Assembly: GCA_951406725.2 (NCBI GenBank) | Contig: OX597815.1 | Coordinates: 71,238,001-71,302,000 of the forward strand | From: Octopus vulgaris | Lineage: Eukaryota | Direction of reading: 5' to 3' | Length of the DNA stretch: 64,000 nt | Part shown: positions 4,210 through 60,221 of the stretch, piece after piece | Layout of the letters: every line of letters starts with the position of its first letter | Position numbering within the stretch: position 1 is the first letter of the stretch | Program-made: the position numbers and the translations under genes | The notes under the pieces: model-generated | Database searches by the model: none | Seen by the model: only the letters and a program-made list of their open reading frames with translations | What the model was told of the DNA's origin: nothing

Positions 4210-4554
4210 TGCTTTCGCTGCACTACCGAGCGCATTTCTCTGTGCCTTAGGTATGTGCTCTGGTTTGTGATGCTCTTATTTTTACTGTATTAAAAGCGTT
4301 TTACATAGTGTGTGGGTGGTGCCCAGTAGTGCTATTTTCTGTATGTTATATATACTTGTTAGTCCTGGTGTTTTTGTTATGTATTTGTCTGAATATTTTT
4401 TATCATGCCTAATGCACCTACTATTATAGGAATTGTTTCTGTTTTTAGATTCCACATTCTGGTTACCTCTATTTCCAGGTCTTTGTATTTTGAAAATTTT
4501 TCCATTTCTTTTAGAGACACGTTGTCATCTGCCGGTATTGATACATCAATTAGA

Positions 4555-4557
<3 letters not shown>
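4210..4557 (-). mobile_element. Second R4/Dong-like 3' fragment
   Basis: Diverged repeat of the 3705-4055 sequence (TAGAGACACGTTGTCATCTGCCGGTATTGATACATCAATTAGAAAG), flanked by (TTA)n on both sides. Confidence 0.85.
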
Positions 4558-5526
<969 letters not shown>

Positions 5527-24334: not shown

Positions 24335-24438
<104 letters not shown>

Positions 24439-24658
24439 GTGTTTGTGTGTGTGTGCCTGTGTTTGTCACTGCCACCATTGCTTGACAACCGATGTTGGCA
24501 TGTTTGCATCCCTGTAACTTAGTGGTTCAACAAGAGACCAATAGAATAAGTACTAGGCTAACAAAGAATAAGTCCTGGGATAGATTTGTTCAACTAAAGG
24601 TGGTGCTCCAGCATGGCTGCAGTCAAATGATTGAAACATAAAAGAATAAAAGAATATG

Positions 24659-24712
<54 letters not shown>

Positions 24713-24714
<2 letters not shown>

Positions 24715-25247
24715 ACAAATAATTAAGGAAATTTTTCTTGAATTTTTTGTTACCCTTATATTGATTGATTAATGAATTCTTGACTAATTCTGAAATTTGT
24801 ATCAGCAGTTTATATTTGCTGCGGAGTAGATGGCGCGATTACGGTGAATTCGAAAATTTAGGATATATAGACCCGAGGCTTGGATGGTGTAGCCTCGTGT
24901 ATATATATCTTCCCCCTCTTTTGGCGACTTTGCTGACGAGACAAGCCAAGCGTAAACAGATTTAATTTAATTTAATTAAATTTGATTGCGTGAAATATGT
25001 TGAAACCTTGCAGGGTACAAAGTTTGAAGGGGATAAATGTTTTTATTTCTCCTCTAGTTTCAGAATTACTACTATTTTTGCGGTTTTGAGTTTAGCTGCT
25101 CTTTTCAAGTGAGTCGAACGACCTTCTCAGGATCTTTCCTTAATTACTTGTTGAATATATTATATAGTCTGTGACTATCTCTATTTTCTCACTTGACCGC
25201 TGGTTGCAGAAAATTTTTCTTGAATTTTTTGTTACCCTTATATTGAT

Positions 25248-25251
<4 letters not shown>
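24713..25251 (+). mobile_element. Hammerhead-containing non-coding retroelement 1 (retrozyme / non-autonomous Penelope-like), 482-nt period, in (TA)n
   Basis: 41-bp perfect terminal direct repeat (24729-24769 = 25211-25251). The 5' tag 24713-24731 is an inverted copy of ~25135-25153. Internal type I hammerhead; (TA)n on both flanks. Confidence 0.8.
24926..25024 (+). ncRNA. Type I hammerhead ribozyme
   Basis: Stem I GACTTTG/CAAAGTT; core CTGACGA (24933-24939); stem II GACA/TGTT with a long extension (GCGTAA/TTGCGT, CAGATTTAATT/AATTAAATTTG); GAAA (25002-25005); stem III CCT-TGCA-GGG; cleavage triplet GTA (cut after 25017). Confidence 0.85.
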
Positions 25252-25311
<60 letters not shown>

Positions 25312-25317
<6 letters not shown>

Positions 25318-25622
25318 AATATAAGAGAGTGGTCACTATATGGCTCACTCTAGCACCAGTTAATCCAAAAGGTTTCAACCACGAAAATACATGTTTCCCA
25401 TGAAAGTCAGTACAATTGTTATGTATTTTCGTGGTTGAAACCTTTTGGATTAACTGGTGCTAGAGTGAGCCATATAGTGACCACTCTCTTATATTTATTT
25501 TGTAAAAATATTATAATATGTTATAAAATATTATAATAATCCAGGTTTCTCGTAGCACTAGGCCACTTGGTGTTGAATAGATATACTATTAAATTAGTAT
25601 CTAATTCTCTCACCCTTATTAA

Positions 25623-25628
<6 letters not shown>
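25312..25628 (+). mobile_element. 5'-truncated member of the same (TA)n-targeted family with an 81-bp 5' inversion (perfect hairpin)
   Basis: 25312-25392 is the exact reverse complement of 25421-25501 (28-nt loop). The 3' part (CTAGG.CACTTGGTGTT.AA...CTAATT.T.TCACCCT.ATT) is homologous to the end of element 3. (TA)n on both flanks. Confidence 0.8.
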
Positions 25629-25680
<52 letters not shown>

Positions 25681-25687
<7 letters not shown>

Positions 25688-26461
25688 GCATATTTTGTTG
25701 ATGAAGAAACAATTGTACAACATTAATCCACTTTTTAGTTGTATTTCAATTTCATTACGTTGAGGTAGTGCTATTTCTATGTGGAATTATCGTTGGCGAT
25801 TATACCGGAGGAGCTATTTCTAGCACTAGAGTAAACATATTCAAAGTTAGCTCTCTTATATTTACGGATAAATATGTATTTGTCTCCCTGGTTTATTGTG
25901 CTAGGTCACTTGGTGTTAAAATAAGGGTATTATTGAATTAATACCTAATTTTTTTCACCCTCATTGTTGAATTTATGAATTTGATACGCTGCAGTAAATA
26001 TTACATGCGGTATTCACTTCCACTAAGTCTTAGCATTTGCTTTCGGCGGGGAATTTGTAACTACAACCCTGAATGTAATTGATCAGACCACATAGGTAAT
26101 CGTCGCCCGTGAGGGTCTGATAAATTGCATCGACAAATGTTGCTGATGATTCATAGACAATTATGTGAGTATAATTTGCATATTTTGTTGATGAAGAAAC
26201 AATTGTACAACATTAATCCACTTTTTAGTTGTATTTCAATTTCATTACGTTGAGGGTAGTGCTATTTCTATGTGGAATTATCGTTGGCGATTATACCGGA
26301 GGAGCTATTTCTAACACTAGAGTTAACATATTCAAAGTTAGCTCTCTTATATTTACGGATAAATATGTATTTGTCTCCCTGGTTTATTGTGCTAGGTCGC
26401 TTGGTGTTAAAAAAAGGGTATTATTGAATTAATATCTAATTTTTTTCACCCTCATTGTTGA

Positions 26462-26463
<2 letters not shown>
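25681..26463 (+). mobile_element. Hammerhead-containing non-coding retroelement 3, ~1.6 tandem copies of a 490-nt unit, in (TA)n
   Basis: Direct repeat 25681-25972 / 26171-26463 (5 substitutions and 1 indel by eye) with a 198-nt spacer. The hammerhead spans the spacer/repeat junction. (TA)n on both flanks. Confidence 0.85.
26136..26214 (+). ncRNA. Type I hammerhead ribozyme with minimal palindromic stem III
   Basis: Stem I AATGTTG/CAACATT; core CTGATGA (26143-26149); stem II TTCAT/ATGAA extended by GACAA/TTGTT and TATGTGAG/TTTGCATA; GAAA (26196-26199); C-AATT-G; cleavage triplet GTA (cut after 26207). The 3' half is repeated at 25681-25724. Confidence 0.88.
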
Positions 26464-26499
<36 letters not shown>

Positions 26500-26511
<12 letters not shown>

Positions 26512-26850
26512 CAGAAGTTGTCTGTGTATGGGAGGCTTGGCAGCCTTCAACTAACACTATCTCCTCCGAGACCCTGCTGCGCAAGTTGACCAAAATTGAG
26601 AGTTTGCTAGAAGAAGGCCATGTTAACACCAAAAATTGTTTACATCAAAAAGGTGCTTTTTTTCTATGAAAATCCCTATTTTTTACGATTTTTTGACTGC
26701 TGTGTTGCCATTTTTCGGTGTATTTCAACCAGGAAAATGTTCACTTAAAGAGAATAACAAGCTACATAATGCAAATTTTTTACTTTTCAAAAATTCCAAT
26801 TCTAAAGGGTCGAAACAAACCCAAGCAACGCCGGGCAATACTGCTCGTCT
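26500..26850 (+). mobile_element. Non-autonomous Helitron-like element
   Basis: TATATAAAG start and 3' GC hairpin CCCAAGCAACGCCGGG followed by CTGCTCGT (degenerate CTAG end). Confidence 0.6.
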
Positions 26851-26871
26851 ATCTTATTTGTCTAACTAGCT

Positions 26872-26938
<67 letters not shown>

Positions 26939-26939
26939 G

Positions 26940-26970
<31 letters not shown>

Positions 26971-28879: not shown

Positions 28880-30783
28880 TCATCGAGTGTGTTGGTTAGT
28901 TATTTTGTATGTGAAAAATTTGGAAAAAAAAAACTGTTAAAAAGTTGTCAAAAAATTGAATCGCGCGAGGCGTCTGCCGCTGCGTGTGTGAACCTTTTAT
29001 AGAAGGTGTGTCGACCCTCAAGTCATGGAGACTTACGCGGGGGTCGCCACAACAAAAAGTGATGAGTCTCTTAGAATAAGAGAAGTGTTCTTTAGAAAAG
29101 AACAATTGAAGGAATACGAGAAGTTCGTCAAAAGGGAGGGTGACAGCGTGAAGCTGGTCCCGCCTGTTGAAACAATAGAGGAGAGAATAACAAGATGATA
29201 ACGCAAGATAGGAACACGAGAAAACTGGTGAGAGTGACGATTGAAGAAATAGAGAAATGTCTGGGGGACATTATGAAAAAAGCGACTTTTGTAGACAGAG
29301 GAAAGAAATATGGTACGGTGGAGGTGAGATGCGCAACAAAGGAAGTGGCGGCCTCATTAGCTTCCACTGTACTGAAAGACGAAAATTTCACTATGTGGTC
29401 GACGTATAAAGGAAGACGAGGGGTACGGGTAAGAGTCCCAAAGGTGCCCCCAGAAATAAAAACAGAAATGCTGGTAACAGCCATTCCAGGGGCAGCAAAG
29501 GAGGAAGTAGAAATAGGGTCAATCAAAGAGACCAACGTTGTAAATTGGAAGGGATTCGGAGTAGAGTTGTGGCTGATGGCCACAATGGAAGACATCGAAA
29601 GGTTTCCCTTCCAAATAGAAATAGAAAACGAGAAAACAATTAGTGTAATAGTGGAGGGGAGAAAACCGAATCCTGTGCGGATCAAGAGGGCACATAAAAA
29701 AGGAATGTCCGCTATATGAATTCACAGCGGAGCAAAAAGAGACACAAAGTGGAGAGAAGGAAAACGAACACGAAGGAAAGAACAGCGAAAACAAGGAAAA
29801 GGAAATAACGGAGAAACAACAAGAGAAGGGAAGTAACAGCGCACTGAAGGAAAATGAAAACAAAGGGAAGAAGATAGTAAAAAAGGAGCAAAATCCACAG
29901 GGTGCAGAAGTAGTGGAGAATGAGCCAAGGCAGAAGCAAGAGAAAGAAAAGGAAAGTAAATTAAAGGAAAGAGAAAAAACAGGAAAAGAACAAGAGAAGG
30001 AACAGAACCAAGAGAAAGGAAAAGATAGTATGCAAAAAGGAAAAGAAACAACAGGAAAGGAACATAAGGCACAGGGTAGAGAGACGACAGACAAAGAGCC
30101 AAAAAGACAAGACAAGGAAAAAGAAAGAAGAGAAAGCAAAAAGAGAGAAAGAGAGAAACCGAGCGAGGAGAAAAAAGAGGAAGTAAGTCCTAAGAGAAAA
30201 GCTAGAGAAAATGTAGGTACGAATAAAAGATTCATATACTATGGAACATTGATCCATCACAGGCACTGTGAGGAGATGGAGGATTTAATAGGCGAAACGG
30301 ATGGATATACGTGGATCAGGATGGGCACCGAATGGAAAGAAACAGGTGCACTCGTCCACGAGAACAACGCCGAGGCGTTCATCGAGGCAGCTGGCAAGAA
30401 CGTATCAAAATATAGGAAATGCCGACTTACAAGGTGGCCACGAGAAATGGAAAACTACCAGGAATTGGTAGAGATAATGGAGTATATATAAAAGAAAAGG
30501 TATTGTGAAAACTTTAATTTGGAAATGATAAAAAGAACTTTAAATTCGGAAAAAAAAAAAAAATGTTGAACTTTGTAAAATTTTTGAAATGTATGTTGAA
30601 AATGTGTAAAATGTTTTTATTTGGAAAATATTGTTGAGGAAAAAAAAAATGACGAAATGTAACCGCTCGATTTCGGGGATCGAGTGGGCATTGCACCACA
30701 TTGTACAAACTTCATAATTCATTATTTTATTTTTCCCGATTGTATTGTCCCCTCTATGTTGCCCCTTGTGGGTAGGAATAAAA
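28880..30783 (+). mobile_element. Tx1/L1-type ORF1-only module with its own 3' tail
   Basis: Contains a Gag-like ORF1 and ends in GATTGTATTGTCCCCTCTATGTTGCCCCTTGTGGGTAGGAATAAAA. Bounded by CAATTCCAGTCT at 28868-28879 and 30784-30795. Confidence 0.8.
29195..30491 (+). pseudogene. LINE ORF1 (RRM-like region, CCHC zinc knuckle, E/K-rich linker), one frameshift at ~29670
   Basis: YGTVEVRC...GVRVRVPKVPPEI...VIVEGRKP, then in the shifted frame LCGSRGHIKKECP (zinc knuckle missing its first Cys), continuing into the charged ORF 29913-30491. Confidence 0.8.
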
Positions 30784-31070
30784 CAATTCCAGTCTGTTAT
30801 ACGCCAGTCTGTTTTTGTCATTTGCTGTTTATTACCGGTTTGTGAATTTAACTATTGTTACTTTGTTTTATATATTGTGTATTTTGTCTAAAAACTGTTA
30901 TTAGCCTTCGCGCGAAGGCTACGTATGAAAATCCCCCCCCCCCACGGGGGAATTGCTTTGAAACAATTATTGTGAAACAGTTTAAAATATACACAAAAGG
31001 CTTGCGAAGCCAAAATTTTTTGAAGGCTTGTTATAGCCAATTGAAAAGGCTTGTAAAGCCACATCCAGAG

Positions 31071-31516
31071 ATGGAGACTCCTATCTCATATTCACCTGTA
31101 TCAGGTGAAGAAAGTTCACCGGCGACAAATACAAAAAGAGGAGGGGTGGTCAAAAATTACCAAAAAAAAAATGGAAAACAGAAACCACCCTACAGAAAGA
31201 GAGCCAAAAAAAGAGGAAAGAAGCGACAAATACATTTATGGCCATTAAGGCTGCCAACAACAGGCTAATTAATGTTTTGGCAGCCATGGCCAAGGTGGAG
31301 AAAATTAAAAAAACAAAAGACTGTATTGTTTATAGAATAGGCCGGAAGGATTACGGACGGATAAAATCCGAATTCTTTCACGACGTGGGCCCTCTGAGAT
31401 TGGACATATCTCCATATTTATACGAGGGCCTGCGTCGGACTCCCCCACGAGCCCAGGAAAAAAATAAAAGTGAAGAAGACGAAAAACAAGTCGAACAAGT
31501 CGAACCACTGATATAA
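31071..31516 (+). pseudogene. Short basic ORF (~148 aa if the A-run at ~31162-31171 is corrected) upstream of ORF2, function unknown
   Basis: METPISYSPVSGEESS...KNYQKK joins WKTETTLQKESQKKRKEATNTFMAIKAANNRL...EPLI with a single frameshift in a homopolymer. It ends 8 nt before the ORF2 ATG. Confidence 0.5.
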
Positions 31517-31524
31517 GGTAAGTT

Positions 31525-34500
31525 ATGGATTGCATTTATGTTGGTTGTTTAAATGTGCGCGGCCTGGGATCAAGCTGGAAGCAAGGTCGCTTCCTTAATG
31601 ATATCAGGTCGCGTAATTTGGATGTTATTGTTGCTACAGAAACCCGGTTAGAGGGGCCAAGAGGTCTACTCCCGCTGTTTGACGGCTACGAGAGTTTTTC
31701 TCTCCGGCCAGTCCTACAGGCGGGGGTGGGGTGTTGGTCCTATTAAAAAGAAACCGGGTTTTTGGGAAAAAGTTAATTTTTTCAGACCCAGAAGGTAGGC
31801 TGGTCGTCATGGATTTGACGTTCAGTAACGGTAAAGTTATCAGACTGGTTGCAATTTACGCACCCAACCAAAAAGGGCAAAGTGATTATTTTCGAGAACT
31901 GGATAACTTTCTTGGTACTTCGCATTCATTAGTTGTGCTAGGAGACTTTAACACAATTTGCATAACGGATGTAGATTGTGTTGGCTTGCGTCCAGATAGA
32001 AAAGGTAACATTGGCTTCCTGGAACTGCTAAGCCGCTTTGAGCTAGCAGATCCTTATAGGTTGGAATTTCCGAACGCTCCATTGTGGACATGGTCAAACA
32101 GCGACGGATCTTCCAGGTCATACATAGATAGGATACTAATTAGAAAAGTAGACAGAAAAATAGCTAAGTGTCCACAGTTTTACCTGGTCAGCTACAGTGA
32201 TCATAAAATGGTCACCTGTAAGCTTGACATAGATAAGGTTAAAAATAGAGGCTCCGGTTACTGGAAACTTAATACGTCCCTTTTGGCGATTAAGGAGTAC
32301 AGAGACCGGATTAGAACTATAATTCAGAGGGCGCTATCTGGTGCCATCATTAATAACAAATGGTGGTATGCCCTCAAGCGAGCCATCAAATTCGAGTCAA
32401 TTAGATATAGCATAGGATTAGTGGCTAGAGAGGCTAGGAGGGAATCTACTCTAGTTAAGGAATTAGAGGAATCCTTGAAAACTGGCTCTGCGGTTCAGGT
32501 GGCGGTCAAGAGACTGGCGTTAAACCAGCACCGCGAGGCCAAACACATGGGCTGCATTGTCAGGGCTAGGATCTGCGCAATGGGTTGTGAAGGAATCAAC
32601 GCCGTGAGATGGGCCTGAGTGGTGGAAGCTCAGTGTGGTAACGACACCACGATTCGATCTATGACGAACCAACAAGGTGAGTTGATAAACGAGCCCGAGG
32701 AGATGTGTGAGGCCTTTCAGGAGCACTTCGCTCAGCTTTTCGGTGAGTGCGGCGGACTGGATAGGAGGAGGGCCTTTACGGACCTCCTCGACAGGCTGCC
32801 GCGCTTATCGGGGCGAGATGCGGAGGGCTGTGAAGGGCCAATCACGCCTGGGGAGGTGGTTGAGGCGATGGCGGACTGCGGCGCGGGCAAGGCGCCGGGT
32901 TTAGATGGTCTACCCTATGAGTTATATAAGAGTATGCCAGACTTGTTCGGGCACCTACTGGTGGAGGTCTATGCGAACTGGCAGCAGAACGGGTTCATAC
33001 CCAGATCTGTGCGCCGGGGAGTAGTGACACTCGTCAGAAAGGACCCGAGCAAGGGGGAGTGCATTGATAATTTCAGGCCCATCACTCTGCTAAACACAGA
33101 GTTGAAGATTTTGGCCAAAGTGTTATCGAAAAGATTGGCGCGTGTCGCGGATGGTCTGATCGGGGAGGCACAGACATGTGCCGTTCCCGGCAGAACCATT
33201 CAGGATAATCTCCATCTTATGCGGTACAATATAGAGGGGTTTAATAGTGATTCTGGCAAGGGTGGGGCACTGGTCCATTTAGACCAATCTAAAGCGTTCG
33301 ATAGGGTCGACCATCGCTACCTGGTATCTGCCCTGGCACAGTTCGGGCTGGGCCTTGGCTTCCTCAGGTGGATTATCCAAATTTACGACAACATCGACTC
33401 GGTAGTTCGGGTGAACGACTTATTGTCGAAGCCGTTCAACATCAAGCGCTCGGTTCGTCAAGGGTGTCCGCTCTCCCCGCTTTTGTACGTGATGGCTCTT
33501 GAGCCATTACTGCGAAAACTGAGCGGCATCCCGAGACAGCCAGGTAGTGGAAAATCGGTGTCAGCGTACGCGGATGACATCACCATCATCGTAACCGAAA
33601 TGGATCACCTACGTAAAGTAGGCAAGGCCACAGAGGTTTACCAGACGGTGACAGGAGCAAAAGTTAATCGCGAAAAGTCAGTCGGCTTGCAACTCGGCAC
33701 CTGGAGAGGCAAGTCGATGCCTCCTGACAGCGTCGTGGAGCGTTGGACGGAGGGTCCGATTAAGTTGCTAGGGGTTTGGTTCGGTCCAGACCTCCAAATA
33801 GAGAAGAATTGGGGCGAGGTATCGAGCAGGGTGGCTGCAGTAACCAAGACCTGGACCTTAGCGGTGGCTATCCCTGAAAGGGAGGGCGGAGGTAACCAAT
33901 GTATTTATCGCATCGGTTATCACCTACCGCCTTTCCGTCGTTCCTTGCCCTGATTCGTGGTTGATCAAGTTGGAAAGACAGCTCTTCTACTTCTTGTGGA
34001 AGGGCGAGAAACCACTTGTGAAACGCTCTACTTGCTGTCAACAACCGTTAAAGGGTGGGCTAGGGATGCCTTGGCTGATGATGCGCAGACATGCGCTGAG
34101 GTTAAGACATCTGTGGCTCTACCTGGATGGTGAACGGGTGTGGTCTCCGCTAGCAAAACTGATGTTTCCCAAGTTCACTAGTTTCGGTGGATGGGAAACC
34201 TGGCTGAATCGTAGATCGAAACTAGGCACATGGTACACGGAGTGTCGCAAGGCTCTCCTGCTTTTCCGTCGCTCGGGCAACGCCTGCGGTGGGGTTCTAC
34301 CACATTCTTCTATAGAGGGTTGGTAGAGGCGGAATGTGAAGATACCTTGGGGGAAACCCTAGGTCTCGACGATAATCAGCTGGCCAGTCTGTTCCGACGT
34401 ACGTTCGAGCCGAAGACACTGGACAACTTCCAGAAGTCTCTGGCGTGGCAATGCTACAGAGGAGCTCTACCTGTTCGGGATAAACTCGCAAGGCACGGTG

Positions 34501-53520: not shown

Positions 53521-54652
53521 ATTATACAGCTGGAAAACTACTATAAAATAACCACCATAAGACTACAAAAATATCTACTTCAGAAGGAAGGAAAATTGAT
53601 ACAAATAGCGGCAAAACACGAGCAAAACAAAAAACTTTTCTCAGTATTTAAGGAGGCTGACAAATACAAACAAGAAATCATACCACCTAACAAATATGAA
53701 GAAGAAGAAGATGATGAAGAAACAACAAAAGCTATAAAACAAATGAAATACAAACTAAAACTAGAACAGCAACGAACCATGATAAAACGATGGCAAGAAA
53801 AGCCCCTTCATGGCAAATACTGAACTAAACTAAATGCAGAAGAAATAGACAAAGAAAAATCCCAGCAATGGTTGAGAAGCTCAGGACTCAAAGCAGAGGC
53901 AGAGGGATTTTTAATTGCAGCACAAGACCAAATCCTCCCCACCAGAAATTACCAAAAACATGTAATGAAAAGAAATATAACAAGTAACTTCAGAATATGT
54001 GGAGATGGACAAGAAACAATAAATCATATTATCTCTGGCTGCCCAGTCCTGGCTAAGAAGGAATATATTCACAGACATGATAGAGTTGGAACCTACATAC
54101 ACTGGAAGCTATGTCAATATTATGGAATAATAACAGAAAAAAGATGGTATAGGCACACACCAGAAAAGGTCACAGAAAACGAGAAAGCAACCATACTCTG
54201 GGATATGCCGATACACACAGATAGAGAAATTAAGGCTAACAGATCAGATATAGTTGTCAGAGATAATGAAGAAAAAAATGCTTTCTAATTGATGCATCAA
54301 TACCGGCAGATGACAACGTGTCTCTAAAAGAAATGGAGAAACTTTCAAAATACAAAAATCTGGAAATAGAGGTAACCAGAATGTGGAATCTAAAAACAGA
54401 AACAATTCCTATCATAGTAGGTGCATTAGGCATGATAAAAAAATATTCAGACAAATACATAACAAAAACACCAGGACTTACAAACACATATAACATACAG
54501 AAAATTGCACTACTTAGGCACTGCACACATCCTACGCAGAACACTTTCCATACAATAACCATCAGAGCATCACAACAAATCACAGCACATACCCAAGGCA
54601 CACAGAGCTGCGCTCGATAGTGAAGTGAAAGCACGCTATAAAAATAAAACTA

Positions 54653-57930: not shown

Positions 57931-60221
57931 AGAGAAGAGAAGACAAGAGAATGAGAGAGTTTGTTTTTAGTTAATGTATTAACCTAATTCTATTAATTTT
58001 TAATTAAAGTTGAGTGGTTCGACTTATCATTGGTAATAGCTGAAAGATCATTATGACGACAACGGTCTTGCTATTGTTTCCTGCTGCTGCTGCTGCTACT
58101 GCTGCTGGTGATGATGTTGTTATTGGTGGTGGTGGTGGTGGTGGTATTGATGATTTCAGTGAATAAGGAAACGGATGGAATGTGTTATGGTATAATGTAT
58201 TTTGAAGAAGATTCCGATCAGCGTGACCCGTTCTTAGAAACGACTGTTTTCATGATGTTACAAGAAAAAGGCTGACGAAAGCTATTCACCAGCGAACATA
58301 TAAAGTACCAGTAATACGCTGAGAAAATAACTTAGCCGACTGTATCGTTTCTTAACAAATAAAATATCATCAATACATTTTTAAAAGAACCCATTTTTAT
58401 TGTCTTGTTTGAACAGTATGTCCTTTTATGTTCAGTGAGCCAATGTTTATCTCCAGTTTCCAATAACGTTAAGCAAACAAGCAATTTCAACTTGAAGAGG
58501 ATTTCATGTTGTTTTTTTTTTATTATACACAGACAATCCTTTCGAAACTTATGTGAGTATCAATGTGGAGCTTAAAGTTCCATTCTAATTTAATTGTAAA
58601 GAAAATTAACTGAAAAGTCTATATACACACTTGAAATACAGATTAAATTACCGATGTGTATAACATTTATAATGTATATACGAACGTATAACGACACTAG
58701 TTGTTATACTTTCTTAGAGAAACTTCTCAAAGAGACATGTACGTTAAAAAATATAGTAGTCAATCAGAATGTCGTTGAGTGATTGTCAGACACTACTGTT
58801 TCGATCTCATCACCTTTCCTCGGTGACAAACACCCCCGGCTACCGAAAGTTGAATAGAAATGCTTATTAAAAAATGTAAAGTTTATATTAAGCATAATGT
58901 ATTTTATATAACGGCTACACATTAATAACGACACATACTAAAGCAGCATCTATAAACAACTCAGCGAAACAGAAAGGTCTCGAGTAGATGGATCATCGTT
59001 TACTTTCATACTATACATGGCCATAGCACTGTTGAACCTCTAAATGCTTCTTCTGAAGTATTTTGTTTCTGGTGAATCTATCATGAACAATTGATGTAGT
59101 TTATATCTGTGCTTCTGGAAAGCGGATAAAGCCAGATTTATAGAAAATATTAAAATCAGGATAGGAGAATGTTCCTCCACGGGGCTCTCCGATAAACATT
59201 AGTGTGTCATCTCACGTTTTTTAAATCACAACTATAATGGGTTACGTAGACAGCTACTTATAGCACTGAGCCTGAGTCATGGTGTTTTGCAACATTCAGC
59301 ATTCTTCTTTGTCTGGTTTAACGAATATATGTCTATTCTGAGCTATTAGCTGGGTTGTTTTTTGTTTTTTTGGTGGGGGGAGTCACTGGTGTGTTCAACG
59401 ATACTACTCAATACTCAACATCTTGTTCTAAAATCTGTTCTTGAGAAAGTATTTTGTTGTGAAAATATATACTGTTAACGATCTTGAGCTAAAATGCATT
59501 ATCGCTGCTCTTCATAAAGCTATTCCCATGCTTGTCTATGTTGCGCAGCATTTTGGTTTAAAATACGACTACGCAAGCATGGCTATGTTATTAAGAAGCT
59601 TGCTTTTGCAACTAGATGGTTTGGGATTCAGTCCACGGAGTAGCACCTTGGACGAGTATCTTCTACTATAGTCCCTTACATGCTATACATTGAGCGAACA
59701 TATAGAAATATGTGGACAGAAAATATTTCTAATTTTTCCTTTCCATAAACTATATGACATAAGTGAGGTTGGAAGAAAGATAAAAGAAAGGCGGTTTATG
59801 AAAATGTCCAAACCTGTTCTGAACGGAAATAACAACAATAATATAACAACCAGTTAATTATGTGGATTAAAAAATATCTTCAACATATGAATATAAACAA
59901 ATTACAGAATATCGGTATGCTTGGAAAACCGTGACGTTTAAGCTATATGTGGATTGGTCAAAACCGTATTCAATAAATTCAGCTTGTTGGAACGTTCTAA
60001 GAGGTTCTACAATTGTCAAGAAATCAACTGTTAGTTAAATACATTTGAAATCTGACGATTAATACCAAGCGTATGAAAGCGCTAATTGAATTTTATGAAC
60101 ATTACAAAACATTTTTTTAATGTTAAAATACCATAATGAAAAACGTGAAAACCGGACCATTTTTTAACTTTCTTCAACCGATATGTGTGTGTATGCATGT
60201 ATGTATGTATGTACGTGTATG

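Follow-up and report, generated by a model that had tools for sequence, protein, structure and literature searches.

The insertion at positions 25680-26467 (+ strand) of the window, the 64,000-nt stretch of Octopus vulgaris DNA analyzed here, is very likely a non-autonomous Penelope-like element (a non-LTR retrozyme), with an uncleaved or circular RNA that would be reverse-transcribed from two internal sites by a Penelope-type enzyme. The repeat to which it belongs, termed family A, has a hammerhead fold, a (TA)n target, two ends, copies longer than one unit, mixed ends in its inverted copies and no coding capacity. Judged by its genomic features, family A belongs with the animal non-LTR retrozymes that have been seen as non-autonomous Penelope-like elements (10.64898/2026.07.22.740005). 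Both the element class and the connection proposed between retrozymes and Penelope-like elements are already known; family A adds a countable footprint, namely a repeat that encodes no protein, carries the two-site signature of Penelope and a long tail, and in its inverted copies follows almost strictly a rule of one site per end. This footprint bears on how inverted insertions form and on whether the ribozyme matters for transposition.

The window locus is flanked by (TA)n runs that constitute the target, at 25628-25683 on the left and at 26465-26508 on the right. The insertion comprises 1.6 units, is 5′-truncated and non-inverted, and has its 3′ end at the long end site S2. Its repeated part is 97.7% alike in the two copies over 298 nt. 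Two end sites, defined by the junctions of 58 and 59 arm ends, respectively, occur in the unit: the short site S1 (unit positions 184-187) and the long site S2 (unit positions 289-293). Both are read through in the upstream part of the insertion, at 25867-25870 and 25972-25976 (+ strand), and at its 3′ end their second occurrences (26358-26361 and 26463-26467) enclose a Penelope-type tail of ~103 nt (26362-26463, + strand). Over ~2.5 kb around this locus (24335-26967), a series of (TA)n runs harbors members of three different hammerhead-repeat families, stacked together with other short repeats.

To describe the family, the genome (2.8 Gb in 227 contigs) was searched with its DNA sequence, which gave 116 matches from the best 40 of 857 candidates, and with an exact 23-mer of the ribozyme 3′ half, which gave 72 copies vs 0 for the reversed control. 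Family A was found dispersed over many contigs, with at least 73 copies; the 73 loci analyzed comprise 40 from the DNA search and 33 picked by exact match to the ribozyme 3′ half. As in non-LTR retrozymes, the head-to-tail unit measures a few hundred nt, is non-coding and contains a type I hammerhead; its longest ATG-started ORF has 38 aa. Four copies (L002, L003, L015 and L109) contain two complete ribozymes in tandem. Another copy (L162) is repeated head-out across a (TA)n run with 99.5% identity, possibly through an assembly fold-back or a local duplication.

Copies of family A end at S1 or S2 and run from there into (TA)n, with a few bases ambiguous. Among the 46 tail-out inverted copies, 44 carry one S1 and one S2 end, none has the same site at both ends, and 2 have another end. 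The other loci of the 73 are 14 with a single S1 end, 11 with a single S2 end (window locus included), one with a single other end and one head-out. Since independent choice of sites would give about half of the inverted copies with the same site twice, their absence suggests that priming is coupled. A tail lying between two internal start sites is the Penelope signature (PMC11167929), and the ends of family A fit it; the family also shows 5′ truncation, tandem as well as inverted structures, and a tail delimited by two fixed 3′ ends. The ends of family A copies are set by two internal start sites and not by the ribozyme, a feature absent from the earlier note on this DNA. According to Frangieh 2024 (PMC11167929), a Penelope-like protein, predicted to act as a dimer, cuts both strands of AT-rich DNA and initiates reverse transcription internally, at two sites that enclose the tail; ribozyme cleavage is not needed. 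In that in vitro work the start site was alike on both strands, so that the reported results do not predict a one-site-per-end rule.

The 5′ ends of the arms are informative on the template. None of the 126 arms has its 5′ end at unit positions 30-40, around the cleavage site, where 2.8 would be expected if ends were uniform, and 86 of the 126 cross that site. A cleaved linear monomer as template was therefore rejected, and the template would be an uncleaved or circular RNA. Moreover, 27 of the 126 arms are longer than one unit, the longest reaching 922 nt. Together with the arms that cross the cleavage site, they bear out the earlier proposal that a circular or multimeric template was reverse-transcribed beyond the length of one unit. 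Direct self-alignment revealed that within-arm differences are private to each locus; among the private changes, 19 are common to all passes in a locus vs 101 that are not, figures that fit a circle and a linear multimer alike.

A complete type I hammerhead motif was identified at 26136-26214 (+ strand) from the sequence motif, its fold and family comparison, with CUGANGA, GAAA, NUH and stems I-III all present. It is built from a 7-bp stem I (AATGTTG at 26136-26142 with CAACATT at 26208-26214), the core CTGATGA (26143-26149), an interrupted stem II of 19 pairs in three blocks opened by U-A (26150-26195), the core GAAA (26196-26199) and a palindromic stem III, CAATTG (26200-26205), followed by GTA with the predicted cut after 26207. 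This agrees, on re-reading the sequence, with the earlier description of all core nucleotides, a 7-bp stem I, an interrupted stem II of ~19 bp opened by U-A, and CAAUUG. The upstream recurrence of the 3′ half was likewise found, since 25680-25724 (+ strand) repeats 26170-26214 at an offset of 490 and has an equivalent predicted cut site after 25717. This half-motif contains part of stem II, GAAA, CAATTG, TA and the 3′ strand of stem I, and lacks the 5′ strand of stem I and CUGAUGA, so that the window locus has one complete ribozyme and not two consecutive ones, the arrangement by which Li 2026 defines an 'active' retrozyme copy. The two sites had been described as exactly 490 nt apart, which holds for this copy (25717 and 26207) but not as a general spacing: the offset is 491 downstream of a one-base indel between the two repeat copies of the locus, and self-alignment gave unit periods of 474-499 nt in 19 other multi-unit arms.

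A hammerhead descriptor, composed with the motif already known, gave one match in the window vs none in 100 locally shuffled windows; family conservation and covariation are stronger evidence. In Rfam, nothing reached the gathering score, and none of the 27 matches at E<=10 was to a hammerhead family; the miRNA matches obtained there correspond to the inverted repeat of a neighboring family (family C, below). The core is intact in 62 of the 77 full-length family A copies, with 33 of the 73 loci having been chosen by the 3′-half match. Among the 40 loci selected independently of the motif, polymorphism affects 2 of 32 positions in the core and stem I vs 103 of 434 others (p=0.026). The two polymorphic positions correspond to H17 and to a compensated pair of stem I, and the free position N7 varies (0.47) among the same loci. 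Alignment A2 comprises 56 of the 57 distinct ribozyme sequences, excluding L018, which has a 10-nt deletion. In it, 94.0% of 1597 cells of the hammerhead fold are paired, and two-sided change occurs in 4 of 29 pairs (66 cells), representing few independent subfamily events and a number of covarying pairs no higher than in shuffles (304 of 500 shuffles reach 4). The covarying pairs are one in stem I (U-A/C-G, 49/6) and three in stem II (28/28, 33/18 and 24/14). Altogether, the comparison of copies supports a hammerhead motif under selection.

The pair at the base of stem II departs from this pattern. The 62 intact cores have U-A (28), A-A (17), A-G (16) or A-C (1) at 10.1-11.1; the canonical G10.1-C11.1 is thus absent, and U10.1-A11.1 is itself not kept, with A-A or A-G in 33 of the 62. 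The position is unpaired in 23 of the 56 aligned sequences. Changes at hammerhead position 10.1-11.1 lower activity, and no activity data on their effect were found in the two papers searched for it. G10.1-C11.1 is highly conserved and not obligatory; U-U takes its place in the axolotl Amex2 (PMC7229834). In the predicted fold of the window copy with its native flanks, the hammerhead is outcompeted (stem I pair probability 0.01) and an alternative helix, 26128-26137/26184-26193, dominates. This helix was considered as a conserved switch and rejected, with 84.3% of cells paired and 2 two-sided cells, figures to be read with an upstream indel that blurs the columns.

Published data on related motifs differ in activity. 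It had been stated that hammerheads with such a short stem III cleave efficiently as dimers, and this is reported for the axolotl and newt motifs (PMC7229834), but not, in the work cited here, for the Penelope type: metazoan Penelope-type motifs are reported to cleave weakly even as dimers (PMC4209133), and cleavage was seen in just one of nine Xenopus dimers (bioRxiv 10.64898/2026.07.22.740005). The ribozyme of an anole element needs protein and is dispensable for insertion (PMC11167929). Cleavage by the family A ribozyme is probably weak, in dimers or assisted by protein, and we consider the chances about even that the ribozyme makes circles that serve as template.

On these grounds, the following course can be proposed for family A. 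A multi-unit copy would be transcribed, and the reverse transcriptase-endonuclease of an autonomous element, most likely a Hydra-like one, would bind near the tail. This enzyme would cut both strands of a (TA)n run, and the two DNA ends would then prime at S1 and S2, one each, yielding tail-out inverted copies with a long and a short end. Where a single product is kept, a direct copy would result, as at the window locus (S2). Synthesis would pass through the ribozyme, over 1.6 units at the window locus.

The strongest competing model, which we rate at somewhat less than an even chance, follows the circle model of Cervera and de la Pena for retrozymes (PMC4209133, PMC7229834): dimers would self-cleave efficiently to 490-nt monomers, which would circularize, the circle being the template. 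The arms longer than one unit and those crossing the cut site agree with this model, as do the within-arm differences private to each locus and the circles formed by coral, mussel and axolotl retrozymes (PMC7229834). Fold predictions are also in its favor, since the circular 490-nt monomer folds at −128.7 kcal/mol vs −100.5 ± 6.5 for 60 shuffles, and in the locus transcript the half-dimer able to cut at 25717 lies 2.5 kcal/mol above the minimum (4.4 for the monomer fold). On the other hand, an uncleaved multimer accounts equally well for the genomic data and is the dominant substrate of the anole element (PMC11167929), the window locus has a single complete ribozyme with a non-canonical 10.1-11.1, and the low cleavage of Xenopus dimers speaks against efficient processing.

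A more tentative possibility is that a dimeric Hydra-type enzyme holds a single RNA on either side of the ~100-nt tail, with coupled priming and with the hammerhead kept as a protein-assisted or protein-binding module. This idea derives from the inverted copies, 44 of 46 of which use one site per end and never the same one twice. Under it, the hammerhead fold might have drifted to 10.1-11.1 mismatches and no longer be a free ribozyme; if this were true, family A would offer a minimal 490-nt substrate for studying the origin of Penelope inversions and tails, and the role of the ribozyme. It is improbable, by comparison, that the copies are 5′-truncated ends (pseudo-LTRs) of an unsampled autonomous coding Penelope-like element. 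Their ends, tail, inversions and ribozyme are as in coding elements, and the genome searches covered the top-scoring candidates, but in 19 multi-unit arms one unit joins the next after ~490 nt, and pieces of Penelope protein (tblastn) occur in only 2 of the 73 loci, both downstream, on the opposite strand and separate. Local tandem duplication or satellite growth at the DNA level, with a ribozyme look-alike that arose by chance or is dead, is hardly credible: the lack of an Rfam hammerhead and a catalytic fold that is not the minimum in context would suit it, but the copies are scattered across many contigs, their ends are fixed, many are inverted, the stems show compensatory changes, and several unrelated families have a motif of the same build. 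The end-site tally and the covariation already contradict this reading.

Family A shares with animal non-LTR retrozymes (PMC7229834; Li, Clavereau and Pollet 2026, 10.64898/2026.07.22.740005) the non-coding head-to-tail unit, the type I hammerhead with short palindromic stem III, a highly self-paired predicted RNA and the coexistence of autonomous Penelope-like elements. It differs in its 490-nt unit, compared with 170-400 nt for invertebrate circles (PMC7229834) and 51-972 nt in the more recent work (10.64898/2026.07.22.740005), in arms of no more than 1.9 units among the loci sampled, in a very long stem II and in its strict use of (TA)n as target. The portions of those two sources considered here do not describe inversions or two fixed ends for retrozymes, and for family A the circle and the cleavage are predictions. 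With Penelope-like elements (PMC11167929; Craig 2021, PMC8557442; Arkhipova 2013, PMC3846280) it shares a pair of internal start sites that enclose the tail, a tail confined to one end, partial tandems, 5′ arms in inverted orientation and a hammerhead upstream of the tail, and its (TA)n target is as in the Hydra, Neptune and Naiad clades. Unlike them, it lacks an ORF and has a tail of ~103 nt vs 30-40 nt; the one-site-per-end rule is a count in family A, whereas the cited Penelope-like literature gives an optional tail on one end. The Dolichopoda repeat pDo500 (PMC2837043) resembles family A in its ~500-bp length, conserved hammerhead, variable N7, compensatory stem changes and proposed single and double forms; pDo500 is a satellite whose multimers are reported to be processed to monomers, whereas family A is dispersed and known from genomic DNA alone. 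In the mainly open-access literature searched, we found no paper on family A or with such an end-site count, and published supplementary element lists (PMC8557442, 10.64898/2026.07.22.740005) may include the family.

Autonomous elements with reverse transcriptase plus GIY-YIG are present in the genome as two abundant lineages, Neptune-type and Hydra-like, clade names that rest on motifs described in PMC8557442 and not on a tree, with no significant Pfam family for the Hydra-like frames. The Neptune-type element has a 781-aa reverse transcriptase plus GIY-YIG frame and an upstream 359-aa frame; its hammerhead variant is short, and its ends are separated by 35-40 nt. Its hammerhead-like motif, seen in L086 and 20 other loci, has a UUGAUAA core (U3/A8 variant) and lies ~65-110 nt from the ends. 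Hydra-like frames have 778-934 aa, with DKT and C-terminal CxxC and CxH that fit the description of Hydra (PMC8557442). This lineage is flanked by (TA)n, its ends lie ~150-160 nt from each other, and its ribozymes combine a long stem II with a six-base palindromic stem III; in all 7 of its loci with two opposed measurable ends these are short/long. One locus (L191, G000:C1:119515000-119524999) contains three tandem Hydra-like units ~3.62 kb apart with open frames of 867-899 aa.

The partner of family A was sought in 30 GIY-YIG loci, 15 extended regions, 20 + 16 Hydra-like loci and one further extended region. No DNA similarity of family A to the sampled Neptune-type or Hydra-like loci was detected, some families being unsampled, and the sole matches were other non-coding families. 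The family A tail fits the length of neither lineage. From their shared build (ribozyme architecture and long tail), we regard the Hydra-like lineage, with moderate confidence, as the putative partner. A hammerhead beside the GIY-YIG match in L064 was considered as part of that element and rejected, being a separate insertion.

Two further hammerhead-repeat families adjoin the window locus. Family B (24713-25251, + strand) has a 482-nt unit, a short inverted arm at the left, an 84-nt tail and a hammerhead motif at 24927-25023 (+ strand) with the predicted cut after 25017. The ends of 40 family B loci are S1/S2 in 14, the same site twice in none, other in 3 and single in 23. It has 1941 genome candidates, arrays of up to 4.5 units, a longer stem III (CCTTGCAGGG) and a weak stem II base. 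Family C, with a 536-nt unit, is represented by a truncated, inverted copy at 25313-25627 (+ strand), and is 72% alike with family A over 114 nt around S2. Its hammerhead, located elsewhere in the unit than this copy, is canonical (G-C) with the same CAATTG stem III. The family (L207-L231) is very young, with 40 matches at 100% over 207 nt, and has ends ~100-125 nt apart and tandem and inverted arrays of six or more near-identical units. Family A provides natural variants at 10.1-11.1 that could be compared with family C, a young sister in which the pair is canonical and the best candidate for RNA tests.

Further non-coding hammerhead families with a long stem II and a six-base palindromic stem III were observed in L088:1-880, L100 (minus strand 4330-4700), L064, L195 (minus strand 4700-5510) and the flanks of L002, L014 and L021. 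They include periods of 594 nt and ~560 nt, and stem II of L195 is also opened by U-A. Elsewhere in the window, a broken LINE-like element with endonuclease and reverse transcriptase frames occupies 29171-34326, a fragment that we take to resemble a restriction-like LINE endonuclease lies at 53824-54288, and a short piece of Penelope endonuclease (50% over 44 aa) is found at 59690-59821.
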